IMG/VR virus record: IMGVR_UViG_3300026097_000001
Length of the DNA: 64,000 nucleotides
Direction: 5' to 3' (one strand)
Origin: a virus
Lineage: Duplodnaviria > Heunggongvirae > Uroviricota > Caudoviricetes
The notes beneath the pieces were generated by a model. That model was not told where the DNA came from, did no database searches, and worked only from the letters and a program-made list of their open reading frames with translations. Below are positions 7,735 to 62,620 of this stretch, one piece after another. Numbering within the stretch: position 1 is the stretch's first letter; each line of letters begins with the position of its first letter. Made by a program: the position numbers and the translations under genes.

Positions 7735-7739
7735 CGTTA

Positions 7740-16518: not shown

Positions 16519-16553
16519 GGTGCCTCTTTTACTTATATTTATAAAGAGGCACC
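16519..16553 (-). promoter_or_regulatory. RBS-sequestering hairpin with TATAAATA late-promoter box at the 5' arm/loop junction (T4 gene e-type switch)
   Basis: 11-bp perfect stem ggtgcctcttt/aaagaggcacc with a 13-nt loop; the 3' arm carries SD AAAGAGG 9 nt before the ATG of the PAAR-like gene; minus-strand loop reads ATAAATATAAGTA. Confidence 0.6.
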
Positions 16554-17632: not shown

Positions 17633-17668
17633 ATCTCATAATATAATATGACCTATTCTCAAGTCTAT

Positions 17669-18247
17669 TTATACAATCATTTCGTAGATTTCCTTCCAGT
17701 TCGCAACTTTTTGTGCTGGACCTACATAATTTTTATTGTGTGAATGTTCGATAAGCATTGAGTTTAGACCAAGTTTAATTCCTAGGTCAGCATTACTTTC
17801 CTTATCTTCTACCCAGACGCAGCCGGTATCACGATAAGGCTCAAGGGCTTCATCCTTGTCCCCACCACATTCAAGGCAGATAACTTCTTCAAAGACCTTC
17901 TTGCCGAAGATGGCTTCAAGGTTCTTTTTACGCAGTTTACCTGCATACTTATCAGTAGACAGAGACGTAATGCAATGAAATACATATCCATGATCTTCGT
18001 GTAACTTACGAACGTACTTAACGGCGTCTCGGAATGGAGTTAACCAACCAATTGCAGCAGAGCAGTTGAAGTATTCACACATCTGCTTTGCTTCAAAGGA
18101 TGTTATGTCAAAGGTCTTACCCATATCATATTCATTTTCAAGGATTGGGTGATAACCACGAGCGGCCATCCATTTATAGAAGGAGTACTGCCAATCGAGC
18201 AATACACCATCGCAATCTACAAGGATTAGTTTTTCGTTTAGTTTCAT
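17669..18247 (-). CDS. HAD-superfamily phosphatase / 5'(3')-deoxyribonucleotidase-like
   Basis: 192 aa; motif I LILVDCDGVLLDW (DxDG) at the N-terminus. Confidence 0.55.
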   Translation of the reverse strand: MKLNEKLILVDCDGVLLDWQYSFYKWMAARGYHPILENEYDMGKTFDITSFEAKQMCEYFNCSAAIGWLTPFRDAVKYVRKLHEDHGYVFHCITSLSTDKYAGKLRKKNLEAIFGKKVFEEVICLECGGDKDEALEPYRDTGCVWVEDKESNADLGIKLGLNSMLIEHSHNKNYVGPAQKVANWKEIYEMIV

Positions 18248-18248
18248 A

Positions 18249-18587
18249 TTAAGATACTTTCTTTAAGAGTGATGGAGATACGGACCATGTAGTGTGAAGT
18301 CCATTTGTTTGCTTTACCTTGATGGTCTTTTGATTTACTTTCGTAATCAAACCCTCGACGATCCCACGGCGTTTTGCGTTAAAGGTAACCTTATCGCCGA
18401 TCGTAAAGTTCGTAGCAATTTCTTTTTGCATAGAACGTTGACGAGCTTTGATCTCTGCGATGATAGTATTGAGAGTTTCTTGGTCAGCGGTACGGATTGT
18501 CTTCAGAGTTGTTTGGTTCAGCTTTTTCATCACGTAGTCCTTTTCATTTGATATATACAATCTATCTGATTCTAAAGAGAATGTCAA
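18249..18587 (-). CDS. hypothetical protein
   Basis: 112 aa; behind the early promoter at 18560-18588. Confidence 0.35.
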   Translation of the reverse strand: MTFSLESDRLYISNEKDYVMKKLNQTTLKTIRTADQETLNTIIAEIKARQRSMQKEIATNFTIGDKVTFNAKRRGIVEGLITKVNQKTIKVKQTNGLHTTWSVSPSLLKKVS

Positions 18588-19014: not shown

Positions 19015-19043
19015 AATATAACGCGTTTTACACCAAATGTCAA
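19015..19043 (-). promoter_or_regulatory. early promoter cassette (TTGACA-17-TATATT)
   Basis: Consensus -35/-10 upstream of 18591..18980. Confidence 0.55.
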
Positions 19044-21088: not shown

Positions 21089-22034
21089 TTTGTAATACCT
21101 TTAATAAATTATTCCATGAATTCGTGAAATTATTTATACCGTTTCTTAGCAGACCAAAGCGCTCTGAAGATGTCATATTATTGAAGAGCTCTGGTTGTAA
21201 CTTCTGAGCCTTTAGCAGGTTCTTGACGACTGAAAATGCCATGTTTGCATGATCGTTTACAACCTCGGTGTACTCATACATAATCGTTGCATCCATCGCA
21301 GTTTCCTGTAGAGCACCGTAGCTTGGATGAACCACGAGGACTCCAGAACGAATGGCCTCAATCATAGCGATACACGACGTTTCCTGCCAGATCGATGGAA
21401 AGAGGAATATGTGAGACTCACGTAGAGCATCGAGTACCTTCTCATTACTTACGGCGCCATGATATGTCATATGACTGTGGTCTTTAATTTTATTAAACAG
21501 ATCCTCGAATGGCTTATCGCGTTGATCCCATCCATACACTGAGAACGAAGAGTATACGTCTAGATGTATGTTATCAAATTCCTTTGAGAGTGCATCTACA
21601 ATTGGATACACGAGCTCTAGACCACGGTGTGGTGTAGTGTGATAAATGAGGCGAATCGTATCCGTTTGTTTTTGAATTGGAGTATATTCTAGTTCAATTG
21701 AGTTTTGAATAACAGTGCATTTTGAATACGGAATACCGTAGAGTAGGATGTATTGGTCGCGTTGCCAGTATGAAACGAATACGAAGTGGTCAAACTTTTT
21801 CCAACCTTCATCTTTGAGGATCTTATTCTCAGGATCCATCGCAAGGTCATGACAGTAAAAGATATTCTTTACGTCATCGTAGATCTCACGTGGACGAGAT
21901 AAATGAATTGCGTATTCCTTAAGCAGATCTGGATCTGCGTTGCGTACAAGGCGGTCACGCATCATTTCAGTACCGCCTTTTGAATTCTTTGACAGATCGG
22001 TGTCTATCACCTTTCCTTTATATACGCAACTCAT
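21081..22034 (-). CDS. GT-B fold glycosyltransferase (GT4-like)
   Basis: 317 aa; C-terminal FLFPSIWQETSCIAMIEAIRSGVLVV fits the GT1/GT4 E-x7-E region. Confidence 0.45.
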   Translation of the reverse strand: MSCVYKGKVIDTDLSKNSKGGTEMMRDRLVRNADPDLLKEYAIHLSRPREIYDDVKNIFYCHDLAMDPENKILKDEGWKKFDHFVFVSYWQRDQYILLYGIPYSKCTVIQNSIELEYTPIQKQTDTIRLIYHTTPHRGLELVYPIVDALSKEFDNIHLDVYSSFSVYGWDQRDKPFEDLFNKIKDHSHMTYHGAVSNEKVLDALRESHIFLFPSIWQETSCIAMIEAIRSGVLVVHPSYGALQETAMDATIMYEYTEVVNDHANMAFSVVKNLLKAQKLQPELFNNMTSSERFGLLRNGINNFTNSWNNLLKVLQNG

Positions 22035-23429: not shown

Positions 23430-23458
23430 AATATAACATAGTCGAGTGTAAATGTCAA
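23430..23458 (-). promoter_or_regulatory. early promoter cassette (TTGACA-17-TATATT)
   Basis: The TGA of the 23455..23871 gene lies inside the -35; upstream of 23151..23396. Confidence 0.55.
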
Positions 23459-24509: not shown

Positions 24510-24538
24510 AATATAACTGATTCTAAACCAAATGTCAA
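24510..24538 (-). promoter_or_regulatory. early promoter cassette (TTGACA-17-TATATT)
   Basis: Full consensus with the leader cctttcatttgatagtatc; the TGA of 24535..24864 lies inside the -35. Confidence 0.6.
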
Positions 24539-28060: not shown

Positions 28061-28089
28061 AATATACTATAAGGAGATACGAATGTCAA
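28061..28089 (-). promoter_or_regulatory. early promoter cassette (TTGACA-17-TATATT)
   Basis: Upstream of 27818..28036, with the conserved leader ttttgatataat. Confidence 0.55.
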
Positions 28090-31292: not shown

Positions 31293-31483
31293 TTTACATG
31301 CCTCATTATAACTTCATCATTACGCCCGAAAAGAGTAACAACGTTTGATGCTACACGTGGAGCTAAGACTTTCACACGATACCAATTCAATGCTTCGCAA
31401 AAAGTATCAACATTAGTTGAACCCCATTCGCCAGTCTCTGGAAATATGTGATGAACTTTATACATTGTTCCGTTTTCTTTCAT
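31289..31483 (-). CDS. hypothetical protein
   Basis: 64-aa ORF behind an early promoter. Confidence 0.35.
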   Translation of the reverse strand: MKENGTMYKVHHIFPETGEWGSTNVDTFCEALNWYRVKVLAPRVASNVVTLFGRNDEVIMRHVK

Positions 31484-31496: not shown

Positions 31497-31525
31497 AGTA
31501 TAAACTATTTTTAAACGAATGTCAA
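31497..31525 (-). promoter_or_regulatory. early promoter cassette (TTGACA-17-TATACT)
   Basis: Immediately downstream of the terminator at 31524-31556; upstream of 31289..31483. Confidence 0.5.
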
Positions 31526-34083: not shown

Positions 34084-34426
34084 TGTTGTAAGCCTTCAAA
34101 AAGTTTTCCATATAAGCACGAATATTTTCTGCTCCTACTGGATTTGCACTATGCACATTATAACCGAAGTCTTCGGGAATGTCAAGATCATTGTCCATGA
34201 TATAATTACAAAACCATTTAGCGAATCCATAGCCGTGATGATTGCTACCTGGGATCTCTCCAAGGTCGTGGTCAAATGCAATAAATTTTGGCAATCCATA
34301 TTGCTCTACAGCCCACACTGCATCATGATAACTGCGACAGATCACAACATTGCGGTATGGTCCATAGTCATAGCGCACATCCGCCGGAAAGCGGATGTCA
34401 TCTAAAAATAGTGTATAGTTATCCAC
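34076..34426 (-). CDS. hypothetical protein, possibly receiver-like fold
   Basis: 116 aa; LFLDDIRFP...FIAFDHDLGE pattern of acidic pockets. Confidence 0.3.
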   Translation of the reverse strand: MDNYTLFLDDIRFPADVRYDYGPYRNVVICRSYHDAVWAVEQYGLPKFIAFDHDLGEIPGSNHHGYGFAKWFCNYIMDNDLDIPEDFGYNVHSANPVGAENIRAYMENFLKAYNNE

Positions 34427-36171: not shown

Positions 36172-36200
36172 AATATAACTGATTCTAAACGAAATGTCAA
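36172..36200 (-). promoter_or_regulatory. early promoter cassette (TTGACA-17-TATATT)
   Basis: Full consensus with the leader ttttcatttaatatatac; upstream of 35942..36142. Confidence 0.6.
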
Positions 36201-38837: not shown

Positions 38838-38866
38838 AATATAACTGATTCTAAAGGCAATGTCAA
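38838..38866 (-). promoter_or_regulatory. early promoter cassette (TTGACA-17-TATATT)
   Basis: Consensus copy upstream of 38434..38805. Confidence 0.6.
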
Positions 38867-39774: not shown

Positions 39775-39966
39775 CTATTTTTTGTCTTCTTCCAACTTTA
39801 ACCTAAAGTGACAGTAATATTTATCCCAGAGTTCAAACAAGAAAAACAAAGAAAACGATGAGAAGAACGCAATGAACATATTTGGTGCAGTAACGAATAC
39901 GATAAACGTGACAAACATAATATCGGCCATTATGATTGCGGCTACGTAGTCATACCATCTTATCAT
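39775..39966 (-). CDS. small membrane protein
   Basis: 63 aa, two TM helices. Confidence 0.3.
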   Translation of the reverse strand: MIRWYDYVAAIIMADIMFVTFIVFVTAPNMFIAFFSSFSLFFLFELWDKYYCHFRLKLEEDKK

Positions 39967-40454
39967 AATCTGTCTCCCATCTTATAAAAGACATGGTCTC
40001 CATATGTACCAAGCTTGGTATATGATTTTGACCAGTATGGTTTTACGTTCGTTGTGTGGTAGTGAGTAGCATCGACACCAATTAACGAGATAGTTTTATT
40101 CACGAGACCTTCAGCGATCTCTTCAGCGTGTTTCCATGACTTTGCGTCGTATGCTTTATCAGACCGGCCATCACAGAACCAGGAGAACTGACATTGATGG
40201 CGGCGCGGGTTACCCCTTGGATCAAATCTTGCCTGATAAACCACATCACAAATCGTGCTTGGAAAGTGTTTACTCGCAACCCGATTTAAAGTTACTTCAG
40301 CAACGAGTTGCATCGCCTCGGATCCTTCTCCACGCGCTTCGTGATACATGTTCATCGCGAGCGCGTGGATCTGTTCTTCTTTGTTACAGCTATCGGCAAA
40401 ACTTGAAGTTGCTGTTGCCATTACGATAGCCAAACCGGTTAGTACTTTTTTCAT
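39963..40454 (-). CDS. SleB/CwlJ-type cell-wall hydrolase with Sec signal peptide
   Basis: 163 aa; signal peptide MKKVLTGLAIVMATATSSFA; NMYHEARGEGSEAMQLVAEVTLNRV matches the Hydrolase_2 (SleB) core. Confidence 0.6.
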   Translation of the reverse strand: MKKVLTGLAIVMATATSSFADSCNKEEQIHALAMNMYHEARGEGSEAMQLVAEVTLNRVASKHFPSTICDVVYQARFDPRGNPRRHQCQFSWFCDGRSDKAYDAKSWKHAEEIAEGLVNKTISLIGVDATHYHTTNVKPYWSKSYTKLGTYGDHVFYKMGDRL

Positions 40455-40487
40455 TGCTCATGCCTTAGATTTTTTCATTATAGATAT

Positions 40488-40516
40488 TATATAAACTGAT
40501 TCTAAGGAGATGTCAA
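40488..40516 (-). promoter_or_regulatory. early promoter cassette (TTGACA-17-TATATA)
   Basis: Upstream of the SleB-like hydrolase gene. Confidence 0.5.
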
Positions 40517-40520
40517 TAGT

Positions 40521-42215
40521 TTATGCCTCGCAAGCTGCACAATCATCAGACATTACACGTTTACGAGTCAAAGACTGTGCTGCAGACATGGAGTAGCTAT
40601 AGTACAGACTCTTTACGCCAACGCCATGAGCATATAGATACAGCTGATTGATTTCTTTTACCGACATGTCAGGATCCAACATTAGGTTCAAACTCTGACC
40701 TTGGTCGATGTATTCCTGGCGAACGCCTGCTTGGTCTACGATGGTATATGGATTAATCTCAGAGAAGGTCTTAAACACTTCTTTTTCTTCCTGTGTAAGG
40801 AACTCAAGATGTTGAACGGAACCATCGCGGTTCTTGATTGACTCCCACGTATCGAGGTTATCCTTACCCTTTTCTTGAAGCAACTTCGTAAGATAAGGGT
40901 TCTTAATCGTAACCTTAATCTTTGCAAGATCCTTTACATATGCGTTCGAGAACTCTGGTTCGATAGACTGAGATACTTGACCAAGGATAAAGCTACTTGA
41001 CTTTGTAGGTGCGATAGCCATCGTTGTTGTGTTACGCATACCGTAACCTTCTAGTAACGGAGCTTCACCAAGGATCTCGGCTAACTGTCTTGACGCAGCA
41101 TGCGATCTCTCACGAAGGTTTTTCGCAATCTCTAGGTTCTTTTGCGCTGCTTCTTTTGACTCAAAAGGAATCATTTTTGACTGTAGGTATGAATGCCAGC
41201 CAAGGATACCTGCGCCAAGAGCCCTGTGATTGATAGCAAAATCACGAGCGCGTTTCATATAGATCTGACCCTCAGTCTTATTGATAAATTCCTGACATAC
41301 CGTGTCAAGGAACATAGTAAGTACTTCAATCGCGTCGGTCTCTTTGATCTCGTCCCAATGCAAAACGTTAAGAGACGATAGTACACATGTAAAGGTTTCA
41401 TCTACACTCGATGGCAGAGCGATCTCAGCACACATATTTGATGCGTGAATATCCATACCCTTGTCTTTATAGACCTGCGGTTTATTGTTGTTTACGTTAC
41501 CTTTGTATAGGATATAAGGAAAACCAATCTCAGAACGGCGCTGAAGTACCTTTGCCCACAGAGATCTTTTTTCTCCGTCTCCGGATTTCATATCTTCAAT
41601 GAATTGGTCCGAAACAGTAATACCGGTCGTTAGACCCTGGATAGGGTTACCTTCCGTACCGATGTCTAGGAACTCGCTTGCGTCAGGATGTTCAATATCT
41701 TGATACGCAGCAAAGAAGCCACGACGGACGGATCCTTGCGAAACTACAGAAGCAAGCGTATCATACATCTGCATAAAGTGAACAGAGCCAGATGATTCTC
41801 CTTGGTCTTTGATTGGAGCTCCTCTTTCACGAACAGCTCCAAAGTAGCCAGATGTTCCACCACCATTCTTCATGAGCATGCCGTTTTCAGCGTGGCCAAA
41901 TAGAATGGACTGCATACTATCATCAATAAACGATCCAAAACAAGAAACTGGTAGTCCTCGTTCCTTACCATAGTTAGCCCAGATTGGAGACGCTAGAGAA
42001 TAAAATCCTCTTGCCATGTAGTCATAGAACTTGTCTGCAAACCCATCAAACTTGCTTCCTGCTTCAGGAGTCGCAGCCATATCCTTAAGGTACTGCTCTG
42101 CTTTGTCTGCGATCTCACGTATACGACCTTCAGGAGTTTCACCGTTGTCAGTATCAATATATCCTCGTGACAAAAATGTGCGTGAGTCTTCGTTTAGCCA
42201 ATAAAATTTTTCCAT
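40521..42215 (-). CDS. nrdA: ribonucleotide reductase class I large subunit lacking an ATP-cone
   Basis: 564 aa; no N-terminal ATP-cone; conserved RNR alpha core; C-terminal CAACEA redox tail. Confidence 0.8.
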   Translation of the reverse strand: MEKFYWLNEDSRTFLSRGYIDTDNGETPEGRIREIADKAEQYLKDMAATPEAGSKFDGFADKFYDYMARGFYSLASPIWANYGKERGLPVSCFGSFIDDSMQSILFGHAENGMLMKNGGGTSGYFGAVRERGAPIKDQGESSGSVHFMQMYDTLASVVSQGSVRRGFFAAYQDIEHPDASEFLDIGTEGNPIQGLTTGITVSDQFIEDMKSGDGEKRSLWAKVLQRRSEIGFPYILYKGNVNNNKPQVYKDKGMDIHASNMCAEIALPSSVDETFTCVLSSLNVLHWDEIKETDAIEVLTMFLDTVCQEFINKTEGQIYMKRARDFAINHRALGAGILGWHSYLQSKMIPFESKEAAQKNLEIAKNLRERSHAASRQLAEILGEAPLLEGYGMRNTTTMAIAPTKSSSFILGQVSQSIEPEFSNAYVKDLAKIKVTIKNPYLTKLLQEKGKDNLDTWESIKNRDGSVQHLEFLTQEEKEVFKTFSEINPYTIVDQAGVRQEYIDQGQSLNLMLDPDMSVKEINQLYLYAHGVGVKSLYYSYSMSAAQSLTRKRVMSDDCAACEA

Positions 42216-42227
42216 ATTCTTCTCTCT

Positions 42228-43508
42228 CTAAAATAGGTCGTCTTCTGTGAATGCTTTTGTCTTCTTTGAATACGCGGTCGAGCGTTTTACAAAAAAGTCT
42301 ACGTTTTTCGTACTTAGGATCTCTTCTGCAAACCAGTCGGTTGTGCGTACCTTTTCTTCATCTACTTCATAGATTGGTTTAAGGTCGATCGCAGTGAGTG
42401 ATTGGTTAAAACGGTGCTTAAGGAACTCCTTAACAGTATCCTTTGGAAGGAAGTCGAGATCGCTGTTTCCATAGATCCAATCGACAATTGCAGACTCTGC
42501 TTTGTATGCTTCACGACACAGTCTGTTTACCTCGTTGATTGAATCCTTATTGAACCAATCTGGGTTTTCCTCGCGGATAATGTTTACGAGTTCGAAACCA
42601 AAACGCGCGTGAATGTCTTCTTCTTTTGATGTTGCTTCGACAGCGTTTGAGATACCCTTAAGAACGTTCTTATGTTTATTGAATGCCATCATAATAAGGA
42701 ACTGTGAGAATAGAGATACATTCTCTACAAACATCGAGAAAAGAATGATCTTATGGAAGTAGTCCTTGTCATCGACCGGTGTTCCGATAGATTGCTCGAG
42801 GTATGCAATACGCTTTTTCATTGCCGGTACTTCTACTACCTTTTCAAACTCTTCATTGAGTCCCATGATCTCGATTAGGTTTGAATATGCGTCGGCGTGT
42901 CTTACTTCTGATTCGCCAAATGTAATACCGACAGCGGCAACCTCTGGTTTTGGGAACTTATCGCCAATCTTTGCCCAGAATGTTTTTACTGCAACCTCGA
43001 TCTGAGAGATCGCAAGCATAGCTTTCTTTACGATCTCAACTTCTTCAGGAGTCATACGGACCTTCATATCCTGAATATCAGCTGAGTAGTTAAATTCTGT
43101 ATGAACCCAGTATGAGTGACGAATAGCATCTGTGAACTCTACGAGCTGGGGGTACTCATAAGGTTTTAGGTTCGAGCGTTTACGAAAGATGTTCGGCATG
43201 TTATTAAAACGAAAAAGGATATACTCGCGAGCGAGATCGTGAAGACCCATATCCATGATTACGTTTTCGACTGCTTTATGAACGGTGTCAACATCTGCTA
43301 CCACATCATTCACGTCTTGGTTTAAAAGATTAGATACATCAGTTGCAACTTCGCTAGGTAGAGTTCTGCTCTTTATGCCGATGGATTTCATCGCCTTTGA
43401 AACGGCCGTTTGTATTTTACTAACATTAAATTCTTCGGTAGAACCATCACGTTTTAAAACGTAACTGACAGTTTTTGGATATTCTGGAGTCAAAGAACCT
43501 TCGAACAT
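42228..43508 (-). CDS. nrdB: ribonucleotide reductase small subunit with N-terminal ATP-cone fusion
   Basis: 426 aa; residues ~10-95 are an ATP-cone (VSYVLKRDGSTEEFNVSKIQTAVSKAM); the rest is a diiron-tyrosyl R2 with ESEVRHADAY and SKEEDIHARFGFE ligand motifs. Confidence 0.8.
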   Translation of the reverse strand: MFEGSLTPEYPKTVSYVLKRDGSTEEFNVSKIQTAVSKAMKSIGIKSRTLPSEVATDVSNLLNQDVNDVVADVDTVHKAVENVIMDMGLHDLAREYILFRFNNMPNIFRKRSNLKPYEYPQLVEFTDAIRHSYWVHTEFNYSADIQDMKVRMTPEEVEIVKKAMLAISQIEVAVKTFWAKIGDKFPKPEVAAVGITFGESEVRHADAYSNLIEIMGLNEEFEKVVEVPAMKKRIAYLEQSIGTPVDDKDYFHKIILFSMFVENVSLFSQFLIMMAFNKHKNVLKGISNAVEATSKEEDIHARFGFELVNIIREENPDWFNKDSINEVNRLCREAYKAESAIVDWIYGNSDLDFLPKDTVKEFLKHRFNQSLTAIDLKPIYEVDEEKVRTTDWFAEEILSTKNVDFFVKRSTAYSKKTKAFTEDDLF

Positions 43509-43544
43509 ATAAGTACCCTCTTTTTTGTTAAATGAGTAAAGAAA

Positions 43545-43562
43545 CCGTATTCCGCAATACGG
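43545..43562 (-). promoter_or_regulatory. perfect 7-bp hairpin in the nrdB leader (terminator or attenuator)
   Basis: ccgtatt-ccgc-aatacgg with T-rich tracts on both sides; lies between the td stop and the nrdB start. Confidence 0.4.
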
Positions 43563-43671
43563 TCTTTTTATTGTTTTATTATTTTGATTTTTAGACAGAT
43601 GCTGTCAACATGTTGTATTTATTAGCCTTACACACAACATATATAGATTGTTTCACATATTTCTAAATTTT

Positions 43672-44577
43672 TTACACCGCCATATTCATCTTAATTTCTG
43701 GATGGTGCTGGTAGTTATTCAGTTTAAACAAAGATGCGTCTTCTTTCTTAAAACCAACCGAAAGGCGTTCAATAAGGTTAAAGGACTCATCTATTTCGAG
43801 AGTAGGAAGCGGATAAGGTTCTCTATCCAATACTTCCGTTAGGCTATACAGATGGTCGTTATAGATATGAGCATCACCGATAGTATGCACATATGTACCG
43901 ACGTCAAGGTTGCATTCTCTTGCAATGATGTGAGTAAGTAGTGCATACGATGCAATATTAAACGGAACTCCAAGACCTACGTCTGCGGACCTTTGATACA
44001 TTTGACAGTGTAACTTTCCATTACGAACTGCAAACTGAGTCATAACGTGACAAGGAGGTAAAGTCATTGTATTCAATACCATAGGGTTCCAGGCCGACAT
44101 AATAATGCGGCGAGAGTCAGGAGTATGTTTGATCTGTTTGATTACACTTAGTACTTGGTCTACACCTCGCGGATCATCCTGAAAGTAAGAGAACTTTCTC
44201 CATTGGGATCCGTATACTGGACCAAGATCCTTGATGTATTCATCATTGTAGTGCCCGAGTTCTACGCCTTGTTTATCAGCATTTGCTGTCCAAATGGTTT
44301 TCTTTTCAACGAGCTCCTCACGATCTTTACCAAATGTAAGTTCAGCCAATCGCCGTTCATCGGTACCGCCTTCAAGGAACCACATAAGTTCGCCAACGAC
44401 TGCTTTCCATGCAAGTTTCTTTGTAGTCACTGCTGGAAATCCGTCTGCGAGATCAAACTTCATTTGGTAACCGAAGATAGAACGAGTACCTACGCCGGTC
44501 CTGTCACTTACGTCTTCCCCATTTACAACGATATCATTAATTAGTTTTTTATACTGATGCATTATATCTTCTTCCAT
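43672..44577 (-). CDS. thyA: thymidylate synthase
   Basis: 301 aa; RTGVGTRSIFGYQMKFDL, FPAVTTKKLAWKAV and the catalytic Cys region PPCH. Confidence 0.9.
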   Translation of the reverse strand: MEEDIMHQYKKLINDIVVNGEDVSDRTGVGTRSIFGYQMKFDLADGFPAVTTKKLAWKAVVGELMWFLEGGTDERRLAELTFGKDREELVEKKTIWTANADKQGVELGHYNDEYIKDLGPVYGSQWRKFSYFQDDPRGVDQVLSVIKQIKHTPDSRRIIMSAWNPMVLNTMTLPPCHVMTQFAVRNGKLHCQMYQRSADVGLGVPFNIASYALLTHIIARECNLDVGTYVHTIGDAHIYNDHLYSLTEVLDREPYPLPTLEIDESFNLIERLSVGFKKEDASLFKLNNYQHHPEIKMNMAV

Positions 44578-45047
44578 TTATCTACATATACTTCACCTTC
44601 ACGTTCGCTACTATAAAGCTCATACGTTAGCTCAATCAATGTTCTCGGTAAAAACACCTCACAATCATAAGTCCCTTGAATACGGCTCAGCCAGAACTCG
44701 TCTATAAGAGTTAGACTATTTTCAATTAGGTTACTCCCACCGATGATCCAAACGTCATCTTCATAGCTGAGTACATTCATTCTTGATCTATAGATATCCG
44801 AACGAATTACCTCTACATCGTTCTGCTGTTTCATTGTATCAGACACAACAATGTTTCGTCGACCGGGCAACGGTTTGAACGGAAGGCTGTCCCAGGTTCT
44901 TCGACCCATAACGATCGTTCCGTTGAGTGTAGTTTCTTTGAACCATTTTAGATCCGCTGGGTTGTTTGGCCAAGGTAGACCTCCACCCTTACCTATACCC
45001 CAATCGTCGTCACATGCTAAAATCGCTCGTATCATGCTTTTCTCCAT
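44562..45047 (-). CDS. folA: dihydrofolate reductase
   Basis: 161 aa; MIRAILACDDDWGIGKGGGLPW and IVMGRRTW DHFR motifs; overlaps thyA by 16 nt. Confidence 0.85.
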   Translation of the reverse strand: MEKSMIRAILACDDDWGIGKGGGLPWPNNPADLKWFKETTLNGTIVMGRRTWDSLPFKPLPGRRNIVVSDTMKQQNDVEVIRSDIYRSRMNVLSYEDDVWIIGGSNLIENSLTLIDEFWLSRIQGTYDCEVFLPRTLIELTYELYSSEREGEVYVDKWKKI

Positions 45048-46045
45048 GTCATTAATTTTAAGTTAGCTTCTAGGCTAGTGTATGTATTATTACGAATGAT
45101 TTCTTCAACGTTGTTTGCTCCGGCTAATACCATTTCGTTAATATCTTTTGCTGGAACATCAGAAGGCCAGATACAGATCTTATAACCGTTGCGAATTATC
45201 TTTTCCATTCGTTTATGAATTTCTCTGTTTCGTGGTTCAGCATCAAATACAAAGGTTGCATTATTTACGTTTTGAAGGGCGGCTGTACTACCTTCAGCAC
45301 CAGCCATTGCTACGGCGTTAGAAAGAAACATGCTGTCGAGCGCCCCTTCAACAACAAAGTATGGCTTGTTAAAATCAACTTTATCGAGACCAAAGATCTT
45401 TGGACGATCGTCGAACATAATCGTGATGTATCGTATTCCTTTTGGGTCAAACCCTCGAGCCGATACACCAAATACCTTACCTCTTTTATCTATAAAAGGA
45501 ATCACTAGACGTGGCTCATCCTTACCAACGTTTTCAAATTTATTTGGTATGATACTATTGATCCACGTTTTAAACTTCTGAGCATAGAACATGCGATAAT
45601 GGTGTTCTGGTGGAATACCTCTCTTTACGATATACTTTTTAAGAGGATGATCCACACTCAGCTGACTTATCTTTTTGAGTTTTTTAAGTGGGTTGGTGTT
45701 GAAGACCGGCGCTTCAAACTTAGTCTTTTCAAGAGTGGTTTCTTCAGGCTTCTTTTCGCTTACTTTCTTTACGAACTTTTCTGAGATATAGTCGTTATAG
45801 ACAAGGTTATCAACACTCTTGAGAAAGAACGAAAAGGATTGACTTGCTCCACAGTTATGACAGTAGAAGTGAAAGCTGTTATCTTTTTCTAACAACCAGC
45901 CACGTGCCTTCGTACGTGATGTTTGAGAATCACCGCACGCCGGGCACCTGAAGTTTATCTTGTATGGATTCGTTGACCGAACACGAAAGCGCTCAAGCCT
46001 GTTTGATAGCATAGTTGCATAATGAAGATCTACGAAATCTACCAT
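45032..46045 (-). CDS. DNA primase (T4 gp61-like, zinc finger plus Toprim)
   Basis: 337 aa; zinc ribbon CPACGDS...CHNCG; Toprim EGALD and primase-core conservation. Confidence 0.7.
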   Translation of the reverse strand: MVDFVDLHYATMLSNRLERFRVRSTNPYKINFRCPACGDSQTSRTKARGWLLEKDNSFHFYCHNCGASQSFSFFLKSVDNLVYNDYISEKFVKKVSEKKPEETTLEKTKFEAPVFNTNPLKKLKKISQLSVDHPLKKYIVKRGIPPEHHYRMFYAQKFKTWINSIIPNKFENVGKDEPRLVIPFIDKRGKVFGVSARGFDPKGIRYITIMFDDRPKIFGLDKVDFNKPYFVVEGALDSMFLSNAVAMAGAEGSTAALQNVNNATFVFDAEPRNREIHKRMEKIIRNGYKICIWPSDVPAKDINEMVLAGANNVEEIIRNNTYTSLEANLKLMTWRKA

Positions 46046-46076
46046 TTCGCCTCACAATTAGAATTACGATATTATT

Positions 46077-46105
46077 AGTATACTACCAGTATATGAAAAT
46101 GTCAA
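46077..46105 (-). promoter_or_regulatory. early promoter cassette (TTGACA-17-TATACT)
   Basis: The TGA of 46102..46569 lies inside the -35; drives the primase-frd-td operon. Confidence 0.5.
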
Positions 46106-46569: not shown

Positions 46570-46634
46570 TTGATGTAGCTCCTAGTTAAATGACTCACTT
46601 TGTAATTGTATACATCCGTATTTATAAGAATACT

Positions 46635-51735: not shown

Positions 51736-52036
51736 CGCGTTTCATCTGTTTGGTAAACTCTTTAAAGGAAGGCTTTTTCTTATATAGTTTAATAGTAAGG
51801 TGTGCTTTATCTTTACCCTTAATGCGCCAGTTCATACCTTTTTCTTTATGTTCAGGTTTTGTGGTTTTAACGACTCTACGTTTGTAACCATCTTCCCATG
51901 TTTCCGAACCTTCGGCCAGCGCAATCGCAGTTTTACATTTTCCGCAACATTGCGAAGTTCCGCAGTTTGGGTGCCCTTCTTCTAATCTTGGTATTTTTGA
52001 CATACTTTGTAAATGTTCTTTAAATGATTTCATCAT
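51710..52036 (-). CDS. hypothetical Cys-cluster basic protein
   Basis: 108 aa; CGTSQCCGKCK. Confidence 0.3.
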   Translation of the reverse strand: MMKSFKEHLQSMSKIPRLEEGHPNCGTSQCCGKCKTAIALAEGSETWEDGYKRRVVKTTKPEHKEKGMNWRIKGKDKAHLTIKLYKKKPSFKEFTKQMKRVAGHEFGG

Positions 52037-54290
52037 GCTTTACGATATACAATTTACCGTCCTCTGTTCTTATTCTTGCTCTCCCAGTTTCATCATCAGT
52101 ACCAACAAAGGTACCTTCTAATGTTTCGGAATTTCCAGTCACATAGTTATGAATAAATTTTACTTTATCGCCACGATGTATATTTGCATCTAATGCAGCT
52201 TCTTCAAGGTCTTGCCCGGGTGTATCTTTTTTATACTTTTTAGTTAAACTATCAGTTCCCCATTCTCTTTCTGATGGAGAGTCCTCTTTTTGTTCAGCTT
52301 TGTAACCGTACTTCTTTAAAAGCTGTTTTCGCTGTAAAGGATTACGTGTCATAGTTGCAGGTTCACCGTACTTTTTCTTGTATTCGGTCTCAAGTTTGCG
52401 AGCCGGTATACCAATGTTCGAAAGAGTAACGATTTGATTTATTATATCCCCAAGGCTTTCACCTTTTGAAACATGATTGTGTATTTTTTCAAGAACTTTA
52501 TTTAACATAGTTTGTTCATCTAAGCTTGAGAATTCTTCCTTCTCTTTATCTGTCAAACTAAATTGTTCCTTTCTAACTTTTGCTGCAAGGTCTTTATCTG
52601 CTTTACCCCAGGTTCCTTTTCCTTTGGTAGCAAATGAATTGACTCTTGCTAATCCCCATTGTGTTGGGGTTGTTCCTGGCCTGTGGCCAGTTCTCCAAGC
52701 AGCGACTCCACGATCAAAGACCTTCTTTAGAATACCATACGATATTCCAGTCTTTTCCGCCTTTTTCTTTAGAGCTTTTTTCGATTCTGTTAGATCGTCA
52801 AAATCTTCTGACATTAAGAAGTCTTCAAAATCTTTTGAGAAATTTAAGATATCATTTATATCATTGTTTAAATCTTCGCCCACCTGTTCTTTAGATTTAA
52901 ATATCTTAAATCGTTTATCAAACTTAACAGCGCCGGTTTTTTCTAAAGCCATGTGAGGTCTTTTTCGAACCGTCATATCTGCCTTTGCGGCTTCGCCAAA
53001 CATATCTTTAAACTTTTTCGTATGAACAGAAGGTTTTGTCTTTGCATCTTTATCGCCAGGGGCTGGTTTATATGCAGCAGGATTATCATCGTCCATCTTA
53101 CCATACTTTTTAAAGTGGCGAGCGCGATCGTCTTTCTTATCCTTATCTACACCTTTATAGTATCCCTTTGGCTGAGATCCTGGCATATCCTTTACATCAG
53201 GATCCTGAGGCTTTTTGGATCTTGATTCCATAAATACTTCAAACATTGCATCTGTACTATATTTTTCTTCATTCTTTTTTGGATTTAAAACACCAGCAAG
53301 ACGTTCTTTTTCTGCTTTTCTAACCTTTGGAAGAAGGCGAGTTGCAATTCTGTCTATTACTCTGCCAGGAATCTTTTGTAATCTTTTGTCTAGCGTAATC
53401 TTTTCGGCTGTAGACATTTCGGAATATTTTTTATTCTTTGATAGTCTATTTCTCATAAAGTTTAATGCTTGTTTACGCGATCTCTTTAACAACTTATCCT
53501 TAGGAGCCATCTTTCTCTTTGATCTCTCACGTGACATCTTAATCTTGGTCTTATACTTACGCATAGTCAAGGCTCTTTTTCTTCTCTGCTGAATTGAGAG
53601 AGGAGCTCTTTCCTCAAGATCTTCTTCTTGTAAATCAAGTTCTTCAGTTATGTTCATTCCTTTACGGACCATATTCATAACCGCTGTTGCAGTACCTTTT
53701 AGTTTTTTAGGCAGGCCTTGCTTAAATAGTCCGATGTCGCCAGCTTTTGCCGCTGCTCTCATTTTTGATGCAGACATGCCGGTTACGCCTTCAGAGTCAG
53801 GATCTCTTTCTCCAGCTGAAACTATTTCAATGTTTTCGAACGTATAGTCGAGTTCGTTATACTTTTTCAATAGAGTTTCAAACTCTTTGACTCTATCGGA
53901 TCCTACGACCAATACAAACTTGTCATATCTCTTTGACAGTTCTTTAGCAACTTCAATGATCGTTCGAGCCGAAGATCTCTTTACAATTTTGCCGAATGCC
54001 TTTTGGCCGAGTTTAACCTTTTGTTCGTATGATAGTGGATTCTTCTTTGCATCCTGAGAATGAGACATATATACCGCGGCATCAGCCTTGCGCTTTACAG
54101 CTTCCGTGATAACTCTGTTCACTAACTTTTCATGACCAACCGTGATTGGATTGAAACGACCAAAACTTATAACGACGGTCTTATTCGTAGCCTCATTCAT
54201 GACTGGTTCTACTTCTATATACTGAGAAGGATCGTGTTCCTTGACCTTCTTGGAATTCTTTTTCTTTTTATCATTTTCTTTTTCGACCAT
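52020..54290 (-). CDS. chimeric protein: N-terminal HxGH nucleotidyltransferase domain (PPAT/TagD-like) fused to a ~580-aa Lys/Arg-rich region
   Basis: 756 aa; residues ~40-200 have FGRFNPITVGHEKL (HxGH) and GVTGMSASKMR (ISxTxIR); the rest is highly basic low-complexity; a TATAAATA box sits 33 nt upstream. Confidence 0.55.
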   Translation of the reverse strand: MVEKENDKKKKNSKKVKEHDPSQYIEVEPVMNEATNKTVVISFGRFNPITVGHEKLVNRVITEAVKRKADAAVYMSHSQDAKKNPLSYEQKVKLGQKAFGKIVKRSSARTIIEVAKELSKRYDKFVLVVGSDRVKEFETLLKKYNELDYTFENIEIVSAGERDPDSEGVTGMSASKMRAAAKAGDIGLFKQGLPKKLKGTATAVMNMVRKGMNITEELDLQEEDLEERAPLSIQQRRKRALTMRKYKTKIKMSRERSKRKMAPKDKLLKRSRKQALNFMRNRLSKNKKYSEMSTAEKITLDKRLQKIPGRVIDRIATRLLPKVRKAEKERLAGVLNPKKNEEKYSTDAMFEVFMESRSKKPQDPDVKDMPGSQPKGYYKGVDKDKKDDRARHFKKYGKMDDDNPAAYKPAPGDKDAKTKPSVHTKKFKDMFGEAAKADMTVRKRPHMALEKTGAVKFDKRFKIFKSKEQVGEDLNNDINDILNFSKDFEDFLMSEDFDDLTESKKALKKKAEKTGISYGILKKVFDRGVAAWRTGHRPGTTPTQWGLARVNSFATKGKGTWGKADKDLAAKVRKEQFSLTDKEKEEFSSLDEQTMLNKVLEKIHNHVSKGESLGDIINQIVTLSNIGIPARKLETEYKKKYGEPATMTRNPLQRKQLLKKYGYKAEQKEDSPSEREWGTDSLTKKYKKDTPGQDLEEAALDANIHRGDKVKFIHNYVTGNSETLEGTFVGTDDETGRARIRTEDGKLYIVKHDEII

Positions 54291-54322: not shown

Positions 54323-54330
54323 TATTTATA
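54323..54330 (-). promoter_or_regulatory. T4-late-type promoter box TATAAATA
   Basis: Exact TATAAATA on the minus strand 33 nt upstream of the 756-aa gene start. Confidence 0.4.
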
Positions 54331-56624: not shown

Positions 56625-57599
56625 TTATTTTTTATACCTATTCATATCTGCTTCGACCATTTCAGTAATCATACGTTCAAAAGTATATTCCGGCGTCCAA
56701 TCTAGAGTCTTCTTTGCTTTATCAGAGTCGGCATGGAGACTGTGTAGCTCGTTAGGTCTTTCAAACTCCTCGTCACTTACAACATAACTTTCCCAATCGT
56801 TTATACCGACAGTATTAAATGCTACACTACATAGATCACGTACGCTGTGTTTAATTCCCGTCGCAATAATAAAGTCTTCTGGCTTTTCTTGTTGCATCAT
56901 TAACCACTGTGCACGAACGTAGTCTTCAGCGTGACCCCAATCGCGTTCGGCATCAAGGTTTCCAAGAACCACCTTATCCTGTAAACCGTTCTTAATTCTT
57001 GCTACTCCATCCGTTATCTTTCTTGAAACAAATTCAATTCCGCGTATCGGCGACTCGTGATTAAATAGCAATCCAGTACAGGCATACGCATCGTAACTCT
57101 CACGATAGTTTTTAGTAATATGATATCCGTATAGTTTAGCGATACCGTATGGACTTACCGGCTCAAAGGGAGTCTTTTCATTCTGTCTTCCATCTATATT
57201 ACTGTTTCCAAACATTTCGCTGGTGCCCGCTTGGTAAAACTTTGTATCCGGTTTAATACGACGAATTGCTTCTAGACAGTTTAACGGGCCGAGCGCATCA
57301 ACGTGAGTGGTTACATACGCAAGTCTCCAAGAACCTCCAACAAAGCTCTGGGCTGCTAGGTTATAGAGTTCGTCTGGTTGCACTATCTCCATTACATCCA
57401 TCATACTGCAAGGATCCGTAACATCCCCAACGATTGTTTTTAAACCTTTATTGAAAAGATCTAGGTACTCGATGTTATTCCAGTTTGGACTACTATATCT
57501 TTTAACGAGACCATAAACATCATACCCTTTTTCTAATAATAGTTTACCAAGATAGCAGGCATCTTGTCCAGGAAATCCTGTAATTAAAGCGGTCTTCAT
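56625..57599 (-). CDS. gmd: GDP-mannose 4,6-dehydratase
   Basis: 324 aa; ALITGFPGQDACYLGKLLLEKGYDVYG, YNLAAQSFV, TSEMFG and the YGIAKL active-site region match Gmd along the full length. Confidence 0.85.
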   Translation of the reverse strand: MKTALITGFPGQDACYLGKLLLEKGYDVYGLVKRYSSPNWNNIEYLDLFNKGLKTIVGDVTDPCSMMDVMEIVQPDELYNLAAQSFVGGSWRLAYVTTHVDALGPLNCLEAIRRIKPDTKFYQAGTSEMFGNSNIDGRQNEKTPFEPVSPYGIAKLYGYHITKNYRESYDAYACTGLLFNHESPIRGIEFVSRKITDGVARIKNGLQDKVVLGNLDAERDWGHAEDYVRAQWLMMQQEKPEDFIIATGIKHSVRDLCSVAFNTVGINDWESYVVSDEEFERPNELHSLHADSDKAKKTLDWTPEYTFERMITEMVEADMNRYKK

Positions 57600-58774
57600 T
57601 TTATATTCCTTATTACATCTGCTACCATATCGATCTTTTCAGAGAGATCGACACAATCGTTTCCTATAAAGAAACCGTCGTAATGAAGCTTATCGGTTCC
57701 TTCAAAGGTTCCACTACTGTCCCAGTTTAATCTATCTATCACTGGGTTCTTCATAAAGTTACCTGCAACGATTGGTCGTGTTTCTACACCATTCGCCGTG
57801 AGTTCCTCGATTACTTTCTTTCTTTTGCCGGCAAGATCGTCCTCGAGGATCAATCCAAAACCAAACCAGCTACTCTTTTCGTGCTCTACTTGAAGTCTTA
57901 TGTTAGGAACATCAGCAAAGACCTTCTTGGCGACCTCGGCGTTCTTTCTTCGATCTATCATCATCTGAGGCCACTTTTTGAGCTGTTCTTGGCCGATCGC
58001 ACCACTCATCTCAAGAGGGCGTACGCAATAGCCTGGAAGTATAAACTTAAAGCTGTCTTCAAACGGATCACCGGACTTTTTAAACAATGGATCGTCAGAT
58101 GTACTATCCCTTAACCAACCGTGAGCTCTTAGGCTCTTTAGGTACTCGTAGGTCGTATCATCGTTCGTAAGAACCATGCCACCTTCCATAGTCTGCATGT
58201 GGTGGCTAAAGAAGAAACTAAACGTTCCCATCTCGCCGATAGATCCACAGTGCCTGTCGTATTCAAGCGCACCTAGACTCTCACAGTTATCTTCAAGCAA
58301 TGTGATATCCTTTGCATCACATATCTGTTTTAATCTCTTGAGCTCGGCGGGGTTACCTAGAAGGTTAACAACAAAGACGGCCGCGGTATCTTCATCGATC
58401 GCTTCTTCTACAGCTTTAGGATCTATGTTAAATGTATATGGATCCACGTCAACGAACCGCAGAGTATATCCCCACTGATGAACAGGGAAGTATGTTGTAC
58501 TCCAACTCACGGCAGGTACGATTATGTTTCCCTTATTCTTATACTTTGGATTCAATGCAAGCGCCGCTATTGTAATCAGATTGGCGCTGCTACCGCTATT
58601 CGTCATAACGGCATACTTACTTCCAAAGAACTCAGCAAACTGTTCTTCGTATCTTTTTACTTCTTCACCCATCGTATACTTACCACTTGCGATTACACGA
58701 TGAATAGCACTAACTTCTTCATCACCCCAAGTATCACTTGCTAATCTATATTTCACGGGAACTTTCCTTTCCAT
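57596..58774 (-). CDS. DegT/DnrJ/EryC1-family sugar aminotransferase (perosamine-synthase-like)
   Basis: DegT-family conservation (DTWGDEEVSAIHRVIASGKYTMGEEV..., TNSGSSANLI); start trimmed to the internal Met MERKVPV because the 52-aa extension in the track ORF looks spurious. Confidence 0.7.
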   Translation of the reverse strand: MERKVPVKYRLASDTWGDEEVSAIHRVIASGKYTMGEEVKRYEEQFAEFFGSKYAVMTNSGSSANLITIAALALNPKYKNKGNIIVPAVSWSTTYFPVHQWGYTLRFVDVDPYTFNIDPKAVEEAIDEDTAAVFVVNLLGNPAELKRLKQICDAKDITLLEDNCESLGALEYDRHCGSIGEMGTFSFFFSHHMQTMEGGMVLTNDDTTYEYLKSLRAHGWLRDSTSDDPLFKKSGDPFEDSFKFILPGYCVRPLEMSGAIGQEQLKKWPQMMIDRRKNAEVAKKVFADVPNIRLQVEHEKSSWFGFGLILEDDLAGKRKKVIEELTANGVETRPIVAGNFMKNPVIDRLNWDSSGTFEGTDKLHYDGFFIGNDCVDLSEKIDMVADVIRNIK

Positions 58775-59640
58775 TGTATAACACTGTTTAAATATTCGAA
58801 TGTTTTTAAATCCTGTGCCTCGCCGATTGTATATTGGCCGTGCGCAAGACTTTGAAAGAGTGGCATTCTTTCTTTCTCTGTAAGATTTTCTATTTGGCTT
58901 ATCGAATGTGAAAGTGGAAACGCTGGGCAAAACTTGTCACATATAACCGGTACTCCCATTCTTAAGGCGTCTAACGCAGCAGAACTGTTATATGCGACAA
59001 CACAGTATGCGTCTTCAAAAGCTTCTTCGAGGCTCTCTTCGTATTTTGGTTTACCTTTTACTTTTTTTGGATTAATTAACAGATTGTCAATAGTATCACC
59101 GGGTTTTCTTCTTACGATAATAGGTCTATTCGTATACTTTCTTATTTCGTTAATTATATTTTGTTCCCAAGCTAGCTTATCAAAAACTTTGGCAACTACA
59201 TTGCTTGGAGGGAGAATAACGATATTTTGCTTATCCTTAAAATTATAATCTCTAAACTCTAGATCAAAGTTGGTTTCAAATCTCTCTTTACTTACATTCG
59301 GGATAATTGCATTTTGAGCAAACCCGTTCTTTGTAATTCTCATCCAGCACGGGCCGTTATAACCTTTACTAAAGTATGCGTGATCTATGTAATAAAAATC
59401 TACATGGCGCTTCCTTGCCATCTCAAAAAGATGGGCATTTCCACGAAGAATACCCGAAAAAATAATCGCCTTAGCCCGAGGAGGAATGCCCTTCTTTATA
59501 ACTTTTTCTGGCAATGTTCCGTTTGGTTTCTGCACTGATATGAGATGCCGCGTATGTACTATCTTTGCTCCACACGCAGACCCAAACGCTTTTACATAGC
59601 GATCCTGCTCTCTTTTACCTGATAAAAAAGCATATATCAT
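58753..59640 (-). CDS. TagF/KpsS-like GT-B transferase (CDP-alcohol or CMP-sugar dependent)
   Basis: 295 aa; C-terminal YCVVAYNSSAALDALRMGVPVICD resembles the TagF-family motif; paralogous to 60997..62016. Confidence 0.4.
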   Translation of the reverse strand: MIYAFLSGKREQDRYVKAFGSACGAKIVHTRHLISVQKPNGTLPEKVIKKGIPPRAKAIIFSGILRGNAHLFEMARKRHVDFYYIDHAYFSKGYNGPCWMRITKNGFAQNAIIPNVSKERFETNFDLEFRDYNFKDKQNIVILPPSNVVAKVFDKLAWEQNIINEIRKYTNRPIIVRRKPGDTIDNLLINPKKVKGKPKYEESLEEAFEDAYCVVAYNSSAALDALRMGVPVICDKFCPAFPLSHSISQIENLTEKERMPLFQSLAHGQYTIGEAQDLKTFEYLNSVIQWKGKFP

Positions 59641-62016: not shown

Positions 62017-62570
62017 AGTTTATTCTCCTTAGATCCACGAAGGATAAAATTATCTCTATTGAAAAAGTTCTGATAACAATATTCTTTTTCTTCGCTAAAA
62101 ACGTGGGCAACGCACTTTCTTTTTTCGTGCCAAGAATATGTTTCTTTCCAGTCAAAACCGTAGACGTGTACGCTCTTTGGATCCTGCTTAGAAATGTAAT
62201 AGAGGACTCTGAGCCCGGTCGAAGATTTCTTTGTTAGGTTGCTGTCAAGATCTATTCTATCCTCTTCAGAAAAGACTGTATCAGCCATTTCTATAAACTC
62301 AGGAGATACGCTTGTGGTATCCATCTGCATCTTAAGAACACCTTTGTTGTGAGCGGTATTAAAATGCGCTTTGTTCTGTCGAATGTTTTGCATACACCAT
62401 ACGTCGATACGCGATCCCATCTGCTTCCTATATTGAGGAAACCGATACCCACCGCGATTGATCCTTACGACTACGTCCGCAGTGTCTATCTCATTGCCAT
62501 ATCTCTGTTGTATGAGAGACGCCGCGTTGCCAACTACCGCAACCGTCTTTCCTTCAAACCATTCTTTCAT
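62013..62570 (-). CDS. GT29-like (sialyltransferase-motif) glycosyltransferase, paralogue 3
   Basis: 185 aa; KTVAVVGNAASL...GNEIDTADVVVRINRG and SSTGLRVLYYISKQDPKSVHVYGFDW. Confidence 0.55.
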   Translation of the reverse strand: MKEWFEGKTVAVVGNAASLIQQRYGNEIDTADVVVRINRGGYRFPQYRKQMGSRIDVWCMQNIRQNKAHFNTAHNKGVLKMQMDTTSVSPEFIEMADTVFSEEDRIDLDSNLTKKSSTGLRVLYYISKQDPKSVHVYGFDWKETYSWHEKRKCVAHVFSEEKEYCYQNFFNRDNFILRGSKENKL

Positions 62571-62590
62571 TTACTTAACCGCTAATAATA

Positions 62591-62620
62591 AAGATAATAA
62601 AAAAGGAGGCCTGAGCCTCC
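62591..62620 (-). terminator. rho-independent terminator
   Basis: Minus strand GGAGGC-TCAG-GCCTCC followed by TTTTTTATTATCTTTATT; only ~35 nt before the first glycan-island gene. Confidence 0.6.

Follow-up and report, generated by a model that had tools for sequence, protein, structure and literature searches.

This analysis concerned a 64,000 nt stretch of DNA (hereafter, the window) from a virus of the Caudoviricetes, IMG/VR record IMGVR_UViG_3300026097_000001, and in particular two adjacent genes, nrdB and nrdA, which encode the small, radical-generating (beta) and the large, catalytic (alpha) subunits of a class I ribonucleotide reductase (RNR). The window belongs to a large phage genome, and almost all genes within the window lie on the minus strand. 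NrdB is a fusion of an ATP-cone, an allosteric domain, to a complete R2 protein, and NrdA is without a cone. Taken as a whole, the model proposed here is that of a class Id (NrdAi/NrdBi) RNR of a large T4-superfamily phage, in which the cone on NrdB would provide feedback by dATP and a stem-loop in the leader would act as an RNA element of nrdBA, and we regard it as likely to be correct. There is direct evidence for the domain architecture, the subclass, the signature residues, the integrity of the fusion, purifying selection and synteny. The features of the two genes are as follows.

42228..43508, minus strand: nrdB, 426 aa; ATP-cone, R2 core and C-terminal NrdA-binding tail; NrdBi/class Id type
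43209..43463, minus strand: ATP-cone domain, NrdB aa 16–100 (PF03477; E 6.5e-15, 55.9 bits, gathering cut-off 25.8)
42357..43178, minus strand: R2 metal-binding core, NrdB aa 111–384 (Pfam Ribonuc_red_sm, PF00268; E 5e-58)
43516..43522, minus strand: Shine-Dalgarno (SD) sequence AAGAGGG, 7 nt before the nrdB ATG, read directly
40521..42215, minus strand: nrdA, 564 aa, NrdAi type, cone-less (TIGR02510, 765.7 bits, cut-off 602; 6DQX, E 7e-204)
41424..41438, minus strand: N260-x-C262-x-E264 catalytic motif of NrdA, with the thiyl-radical cysteine
40530..40541, minus strand: C559-A-A-C562 redox-shuttle cysteine pair at the NrdA C-terminus, aligned with CSSC of 6DQX

Both open reading frames (ORFs) lie on the minus strand at the positions given in the original prediction, which had been made from the DNA letters and a list of their ORFs, and the peptide strings quoted there were all found: VSYVLKRDGSTEEFNVSKIQTAVSKAM at NrdB aa 14–40, ESEVRHADAY at aa 199–208, EEDIHARFGFE at aa 296–306, and CAACEA at the C-terminus of NrdA. 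The nrdB ATG at 43508 is the first start codon after an in-frame stop. The ORF had been read as an ATP-cone fused to a complete R2, and a Pfam run places both domains within one continuous protein. The comparison suggested at the time, with NrdB of Leeuwenhoekiella blandensis (PDB 5OLK), gave an end-to-end match, NrdB aa 14–426 being aligned over the full length with an E-value of 1e-138. The large subunit was also described correctly, as a cone-less protein of 564 aa that starts with the catalytic core and ends in CAACEA. Only the barrel and all-alpha domains (Pfam Ribonuc_red_lgC/lgN) are present in NrdA, with no PF03477, and all of the catalytic residues are in place (C92, N260-x-C262-x-E264, C277, the Y538/Y539 pair and C559-A-A-C562). 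Its length equals the published median of 564 aa for NrdAi proteins (PMC9669993). A cone upstream of the called NrdA start had been raised as one possible flaw in the prediction, but the nrdB stop and the nrdA ATG are separated by 12 nt, and so there is no room for one.

The second possible flaw was that the N-terminal ~95 aa of NrdB might belong to a separate gene. In its general form, this reading holds that the fusion is a sequencing or assembly artefact that joined a separate gene of ~100 aa to the R2, or else that the cone is a decaying remnant. PF03477 and PF00268 are both found in all of the 120 best database homologues (81–100% identity), and nrdB is a single stop-free ORF in 80 of 80 independent IMG/VR loci (70–90% identity), where nrdA follows directly and matches from residue 1–4. 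In each of these 80 loci beta precedes alpha and NrdA has no cone. Cellular relatives, in Flavobacteriia and in the candidate phyla radiation (CPR)/Patescibacteria (at most 55% identity), are likewise fused, and a decaying remnant is contradicted by the strong purifying selection on the cone that is described below. With the fusion intact in the 120 homologues, the 80 loci and the cellular relatives, and with NrdA free of a cone, both doubts are removed. The fusion is real, and the chance that it is an artefact or a remnant is so slight that we treat this reading as refuted.

Subclass and metal cofactor

The top eight PDB matches of NrdB are all NrdBi/class Id proteins (5OLK, 6SF4, 8DQ3 and 6CWO among them; E 1e-138 to 1e-81), whereas the best match to any R2 outside class Id has an E-value of 1.5e-24. 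The nearest PDB matches of NrdA are class Id catalytic subunits, 6DQX (E 7e-204) and 6DQW (E 4e-179), and the score for NCBIfam TIGR02510 exceeds its cut-off. Judged by these similarities, the enzyme is a class Id (NrdAi/NrdBi) RNR, and the predicted type, with the cone on the radical-generating subunit, is upheld.

The same prediction called the small subunit a diiron R2, and this description is probably wrong. Residue roles in NrdB were mapped from published L. blandensis residues (PMC5794259, PMC6754362). The metal ligands E171, E201, H204, E262, E297 and H300 are invariant in the 120 homologues, as are two class Id markers, the helix-B lysine K175 and the subclass-conserved W178, and also Y208 at the radical-site position. 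The six carboxylate/histidine ligands and a Tyr at the radical position would be compatible with a conventional diiron-tyrosyl (class Ia-like) R2, and the identity of the metal cannot be fixed from sequence alone, but NrdB falls within NrdBi, with a core that is 59% identical to L. blandensis NrdB, and it has the class Id-specific K175 and W178, which makes a diiron enzyme very unlikely. In characterised class Id enzymes the cofactor is Mn2(IV,III), a stable tyrosyl radical is not formed, and iron does not support activity (PMC6754362). With all of the class Id signature residues present, the cofactor of NrdB is probably Mn2(IV,III) and not diiron. By homology, its oxidant would be assembled with superoxide or H2O2, and no stable tyrosyl radical would be formed. 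An RNR that depends on manganese and needs no iron would be of consequence to phages replicating in iron-poor waters.

Three characterised systems are instructive. The NrdAi/NrdBi enzyme of L. blandensis (5OLK, 6SF4; PMC5794259, PMC6754362, PMC8350387) has the same succession of ATP-cone, short linker, R2 core and disordered tail, identical metal ligands along with K174, W177 and Y207 (its own numbering), a cone-less NrdA, a beta-to-alpha operon, and hydrophobic tetramer-interface residues that are kept here. Unlike it, NrdB of the window has a variable N-terminal extension of 13 aa and a Lys in place of Asp73, and its gene is carried beside frd and td by a lytic-type T4-like phage and not by a flavobacterium. 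The class Id enzymes from Flavobacterium johnsoniae and from Actinobacillus ureae (6CWO/6CWP, 6DQW, 6DQX) have the same minimal NrdA of ~560 aa with a C-terminal CxxC, and a core in common with the NrdB described here (E 4e-87), but their NrdBs are without an ATP-cone, as judged by the chain lengths and by matches that start at query residue ~105, and they therefore have no known overall-activity switch. Finally, the Grx::ATP-cone::NrdBi protein of Facklamia ignava (PMC6187632), in which Grx is glutaredoxin, also carries its cone on NrdBi, and it forms dATP-driven tetramers and has a Mn(III)/Mn(IV) cofactor; in contrast, no glutaredoxin is fused to NrdB here, and the window has no redoxin gene.

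The ATP-cone and its proposed regulation

The residues that would contact nucleotides in the cone are well preserved. K19 and R20 (the KR of the VxKRDG strand) and the helix-1 lysine K31 are invariant in the 120 homologues, as are H90, R94 and Y96 of helix 4, and R100 is kept in 119 of them; the general roles of these nucleotide-contact residues are taken from PMC11226230. The roles of the tetramer-interface residues are those published for L. blandensis (PMC5794259), and among their equivalents M85, I97, E81 and R94 are invariant, with L98 present in 110 of the 120 homologues. Mean conservation is 67% in the cone and 91% in the core. The proportion of nonsynonymous differences (pN) is ~0.23 in the cone versus 0.08 in the core, and it can be set only against a proportion of synonymous differences (pS) that is saturated at ~0.8, the saturation in most pairs precluding a proper dN/dS. 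As pN in the cone is well below this value, it indicates purifying selection, and no stop codon was seen in the 80 loci. The locus also follows a published rule by which a cone on beta is accompanied by a beta-to-alpha operon (PMC9669993).

By analogy with L. blandensis and F. ignava (PMC5794259, PMC6187632, PMC8350387), ATP would keep NrdB as a beta2 dimer and so allow an active alpha2beta2 enzyme to form. Binding of dATP would bring about cone–cone contacts via helices 3 and 4 and produce an inactive beta4 tetramer, which would bind alpha2 non-productively, in alpha2beta4 or alpha4beta4 complexes. The phage would thereby gain feedback control of its deoxyribonucleotide (dNTP) supply. NrdA would be a minimal catalytic subunit, expected to show regulation of substrate specificity and to have no overall-activity site. 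We infer dATP inhibition, beta4 formation and specificity regulation by NrdA, just as we infer the identity of the metal and the transcription unit discussed below.

Several observations weigh against such a switch, or at least against its operating as in L. blandensis. Identity with the L. blandensis protein is no more than 32% in the cone, compared with 59% in the core. In L. blandensis, Asp73 forms a conserved salt bridge with Arg95 inside the cone, whereas 106 of the 120 clade members have Lys or Arg at this position. The stretch that follows helix 4 has also lost 4 residues and has no NKR basic cluster, and nucleotide stoichiometry and tetramer geometry could therefore differ. While the aromatic Y96 and the basic R94 and R100 are kept beside this shortened basic segment, they do not by themselves fix a stoichiometry of two dATP per cone. 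The metal identity and dATP inhibition are both carried over from homologues. No thioredoxin- or glutaredoxin-like CxxC ORF was found within the 64-kb window, the small neighbouring ORFs being without a redoxin Pfam domain. T4 RNR keeps its ATP-cone yet is reported not to be inhibited by dATP, so the presence of a cone in a lytic phage does not guarantee an off-switch.

It could be argued from these points that in this phage clade the cone is functional without being an off-switch: with ATP, or just one nucleotide, bound, its role would be to activate or tune the enzyme and no more, so that lytic growth would proceed with dNTP synthesis unchecked, as is reported for T4. The replacement of Asp73, the shortened segment and the T4 precedent would all agree with this, as would a cone that evolves 3–4 times faster than the core and a nucleotide stoichiometry that is not the same in the F. 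ignava cone as in that of L. blandensis (PMC6187632). Nevertheless, the canonical residues for nucleotide contact show no variation, nor do four of the five interface equivalents, the fifth, L98, being kept in most of the homologues, and both of the characterised NrdBi cones are dATP off-switches (PMC5794259, PMC6187632). A cone without an off-switch is accordingly thought improbable, and feedback by dATP through NrdB is the preferred interpretation. That lytic phages retain an allosteric domain under purifying selection raises the question of whether phages want dATP feedback inhibition at all.

The nrdB leader and transcription of the locus

The gene order at the locus is primase-frd-td-nrdB-nrdA, and the features around nrdBA are given below.

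43542..43565, minus strand: leader stem-loop, 8 Watson-Crick pairs (43544–43563) plus 2 outer pairs, GCGG loop
43581..43608, minus strand: weak sigma-70-like promoter candidate, TTGACA-16-CAAAAT; a consensus match only (10/12), upstream of the hairpin
43616..43625, minus strand: CTAATAAATA box, reading AATAAATA, one mismatch from the T4-type late-promoter motif TATAAATA
43672..46105, minus strand: upstream context block, from the early promoter through td
43672–44577, minus strand: thymidylate synthase (td), from Pfam and context
44562–45047, minus strand: dihydrofolate reductase (DHFR, frd), from Pfam and context
45032–46045, minus strand: T4 gp61-like primase, from Pfam and context
40488..40516, minus strand: early-type promoter cassette TTGACAT...TAGAATCAG...TATATA, strong, starting 5 nt past the nrdA stop
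39963–40454, minus-strand neighbourhood: cell-wall hydrolase, downstream of nrdA

A perfect 7-bp hairpin had been predicted in the nrdB leader, and a hairpin does occur there, but its size was underestimated: the arms ACCGTATT and AATACGGT form eight Watson-Crick pairs, or ten with the outer G-U and A-U pairs, around a 4-nt loop. The stem has three G-C pairs, with an A-tract preceding it (5') and UUUCUUU following it (3'). The hairpin lies ~100 nt past the td stop and ends 33 nt before the nrdB ATG.

Support for this element comes from relatives; the leader of the window is unremarkable when taken alone. Across 62 distinct leaders of relatives, the mean minimum free energy (MFE) of a 45-nt segment at −70 to −25 is −9.5 kcal/mol, compared with about −4 kcal/mol at every other leader position between −200 and +5, and this region folds better than shuffled sequences (p 1.6e-10). 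A hairpin of at least six pairs is present in 53 of the 62. The distance from hairpin to ATG has a median of 35 and a standard deviation (sd) of 11, whereas the distance to the upstream stop has a median of 87 and an sd of 90; the former is bounded by construction by the interval searched, and the sliding MFE profile is the cleaner evidence. The hairpin is thus tied to the nrdB start and not to the end of the upstream gene. Its sequence differs between sub-clades while its position is kept. The position-conserved stem-loop is the one new point to emerge from the analysis.

There are also results that do not favour a dedicated RNA element. The fold of the 101-nt leader in the window is not significant on its own when compared with shuffles (z −1.67). 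Compensatory changes in the stem were sought, but the closest relatives, L001 and L002, show decay instead, and the more distant hairpins are not alignable, so that the conservation shown is positional and energetic only. T-tails are mildly enriched (mean 3.4 T in 8 nt, 2.4 expected), with at least five T in only 6 of 28 strong hairpins of relatives.

In the window, the hairpin is also shaped like an intrinsic terminator or attenuator, and it might be nothing other than a plain rho-independent terminator of frd-td with no specific link to nrdB. Its A-tract, its 8-bp stem with three G-C pairs and its UUUCUUU tail are of the standard form, and the ORFs that start at 31483 and 62570 in the window are each preceded by a clear terminator of the same shape. 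However, the hairpin lies ~100 nt from the td stop and only 33 nt from the nrdB ATG, it tracks the ATG and not the upstream stop across relatives, it persists where the upstream gene differs, and most relatives have no T-tail. A simple td terminator is therefore possible but doubtful, and most likely the hairpin belongs to the nrdBA 5' untranslated region or intercistronic RNA as a structural element, which may serve in mRNA end protection, processing or attenuation. A more elaborate proposal is that the stem-loop, held at ~30–35 nt before nrdB, is a dedicated cis-regulatory RNA (an attenuator or a processing/stability switch) that separates RNR output from that of frd-td, and that in parallel the divergent cone (Asp73 to Lys/Arg, shortened helix-4 tail) has a nucleotide response unlike that of L. 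blandensis. This combination would appear unlikely.

At permissive thresholds over 40000–45200, no RNA family or riboswitch known to Rfam was detected in the leader. The promoter-early stem-loop (PeSL) cassette of T4-type phages, in which a stem-loop just upstream of a sigma-70-like promoter is followed by an SD and a start codon (PMC4122927), was also considered. It was rejected because the order of elements is reversed here (promoter-like site, hairpin, SD) and only 33 nt lie between hairpin and ATG. Elsewhere in the window, two clear intrinsic terminators, each with an A-tract, a G+C-rich stem and a T-tract, occur on the minus strand at 31433–31483 (AAAGGGGGCATCtttgGGTGCCCTTTTT) and 62570–62620 (GGGAGGCCtcaGGCCTCCTTTTTT). 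The former is directly followed by TTGACAT, a true PeSL-like terminator-promoter layout, ahead of the ORF starting at 31483.

The spacer between td and nrdB contains two palindromes with ACAAY/GTTGW half-sites (ACAATctatatatGTTGT and ACAACatGTTGA; 43601–43651, minus strand), their centres 32 bp apart, which are conserved only in the closest relatives. An NrdR operator consists of paired 16-bp boxes with the consensus acaCwAtATaTwGtgt. Near nrdB no match to this consensus was found within 3 mismatches, and the spacer palindromes do not fit it, so that an NrdR operator was discarded as a candidate.

Near-consensus promoters of the type TTGACAT-N16-TATAWT occur 13 times in the window, all on the coding strand, where 0.5 are expected. 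Their positions, all on the minus strand, are

5286–5314, 6981–7009, 18559–18587, 19015–19043, 23430–23458, 24510–24538, 28061–28089, 31497–31525, 34157–34185, 36172–36200, 38838–38866, 40488–40516 and 46077–46105.

Seven of the 13 have a conserved TAGAATCAG spacer, nearly identical among them (TTTAGAATCAG). They look like a repeated early-promoter cassette of the sort tied to modular shuffling in T4-type phages. The cassette at 40488–40516 would mark the 3' boundary of the nrdBA unit, and the nearest strong promoter upstream of nrdB is that at 46077–46105, ahead of the primase gene. From these two consensus matches, an early unit consisting of primase-frd-td-[hairpin]-nrdB-nrdA, read from the promoter ahead of primase, is probable. 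The weaker TTGACA-16-CAAAAT candidate is partly conserved in L002 and L080. The CTAATAAATA box is kept as (T/A)ATAAATA in L001, L002, L014, L036 and L080, and as GATAAATA in L004. The motif TATAAATA itself has 10 copies in the window where 4.6 ± 2.0 are expected, and nine lie on the coding strand. This enrichment fits T4-like late transcription; sites include 1406–1413, 16536–16543, 17666–17673, 21131–21138, 46619–46626 and 54323–54330.

Distribution, neighbourhood and lineage

The enzyme type and its regulation have been known since 2018, when 93 RefSeq NrdBi proteins with cones were described as 'encoded by viruses and bacteria' (PMC5794259), and since viruses were already listed as carriers, no new category is opened by the present example. 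The enzyme will not surprise RNR specialists, and what may be worth following up is its prevalence in abundant T4-like phages, the exchange of RNR modules, and the position-conserved stem-loop. The original prediction had the arrangement as rare, being known from a few Flavobacteriia and viruses, which understates its distribution: fused proteins occur in 68 phage isolate records, in all of the 120 best metagenomic homologues and in the 80 IMG/VR loci. The 68 are those among 817 phage isolate records with an NrdB match that cover at least 80% of the query, and among the top matches listed the isolate alignments start at query residue 12–19, and thus include the cone. Close relatives also occur on environmental viral contigs in their hundreds, which are up to 223 kb long apart from one of 318 kb. 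In a large clade of T4-like phages that is abundant in the environment, and in many cultured Staphylococcus phages, the cone-on-beta class Id module is the standard RNR.

The isolate carriers include many Staphylococcus Twort-like phages, along with Sporosarcina phage Lietuvens and Salicola phage SCTP-2, and most annotated records of isolate phages are labelled 'class Ia'. Twort-like examples such as PP995776.1, KX171212.1 and OQ025229.1 encode an ATP-cone::NrdBi together with a cone-less NrdAi, and in several of these phages nrdA is split by insertions of HNH endonucleases. Cultured phages such as Romulus, Stau2, vB_SscM-1, Lietuvens and SCTP-2 have the same fused NrdB and an NrdA of NrdAi type, but NrdB is 45–48% and NrdA ~55% identical to the proteins of the window, and the phage backbone is a different one.

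The same neighbourhood is seen in the RNR modules of T4 and the cyanomyoviruses, which lie downstream of a gp61-type primase with frd and td in phages of the same superfamily (primase 42–47% identity). In these the cone is on NrdA and alpha precedes beta, the inverse of the lineage described here: cyanophage S-RIM50 has, at the same primase-adjacent locus, a cone on a 768-aa NrdA, a cone-less NrdB and the alpha-to-beta order. The T4 superfamily therefore holds alternative RNR modules at one locus, and a single primase-adjacent site with either the canonical (cone on alpha) or the inverse module makes a clean case of module replacement.

The primase of the window is 47% identical to those of the Sinorhizobium phage phiM12 group and 42–43% identical to cyanomyovirus primases, and phiM12 also has the order primase-dfrA-td. 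By this relationship the phage is placed in the T4 superfamily. A megablast search of the region against 50,697 phage genomes returned zero matches, so there is no close cultured relative among them, and relatives are found only at the protein level. The sole match above 55% NrdB identity in the genome collection is a 43-kb contig, FZLS01000020.1, assigned to 'Rhodobacteraceae bacterium Water_Bin34' (L081), with an NrdB that is 85% identical. It is probably a phage contig that was binned with a Rhodobacteraceae metagenome-assembled genome. As a weak hint, it suggests an alphaproteobacterial host, in line with Sinorhizobium phages being the nearest relatives by primase.

While nrdA of the window is intact, in four related IMG/VR loci (L049, L053, L064 at ~5290–8290, and L078 at ~5281–7471) the gene is interrupted exactly at the thiyl-radical cysteine, the break points being ...HASNM|CLRGDS... 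and ...VHN|CIEIALP. This is a split intein at the N260-x-C262-x-E264 motif, and is similar to the 'fractured gene' type of split intein found in marine metagenomes. A free-standing ORF of 280–282 aa lies between the nrdA halves in L049 and L064, with identical match coordinates in L053; it has no Pfam hit and, judged by its position, presumably encodes a homing endonuclease. In L078 the two halves have no ORF between them.

Other products encoded in the window include a Dda-like helicase and a T4 gp63-like RNA ligase. A tail-fibre protein of 1738 aa with collagen-like repeats is encoded at 9531–14747 (minus strand), where the G+C content is 0.47–0.50 compared with ~0.40 for the window. A cluster of sugar-nucleotide enzymes, also on the minus strand (52020–54290, 56625–57599 and 57596–58930), comprises a 756-aa cytidylyltransferase-like protein, a nucleotide-sugar epimerase and an aminotransferase, and may contribute to the synthesis of nonulosonic or amino sugars, or to modification of DNA or of the surface.

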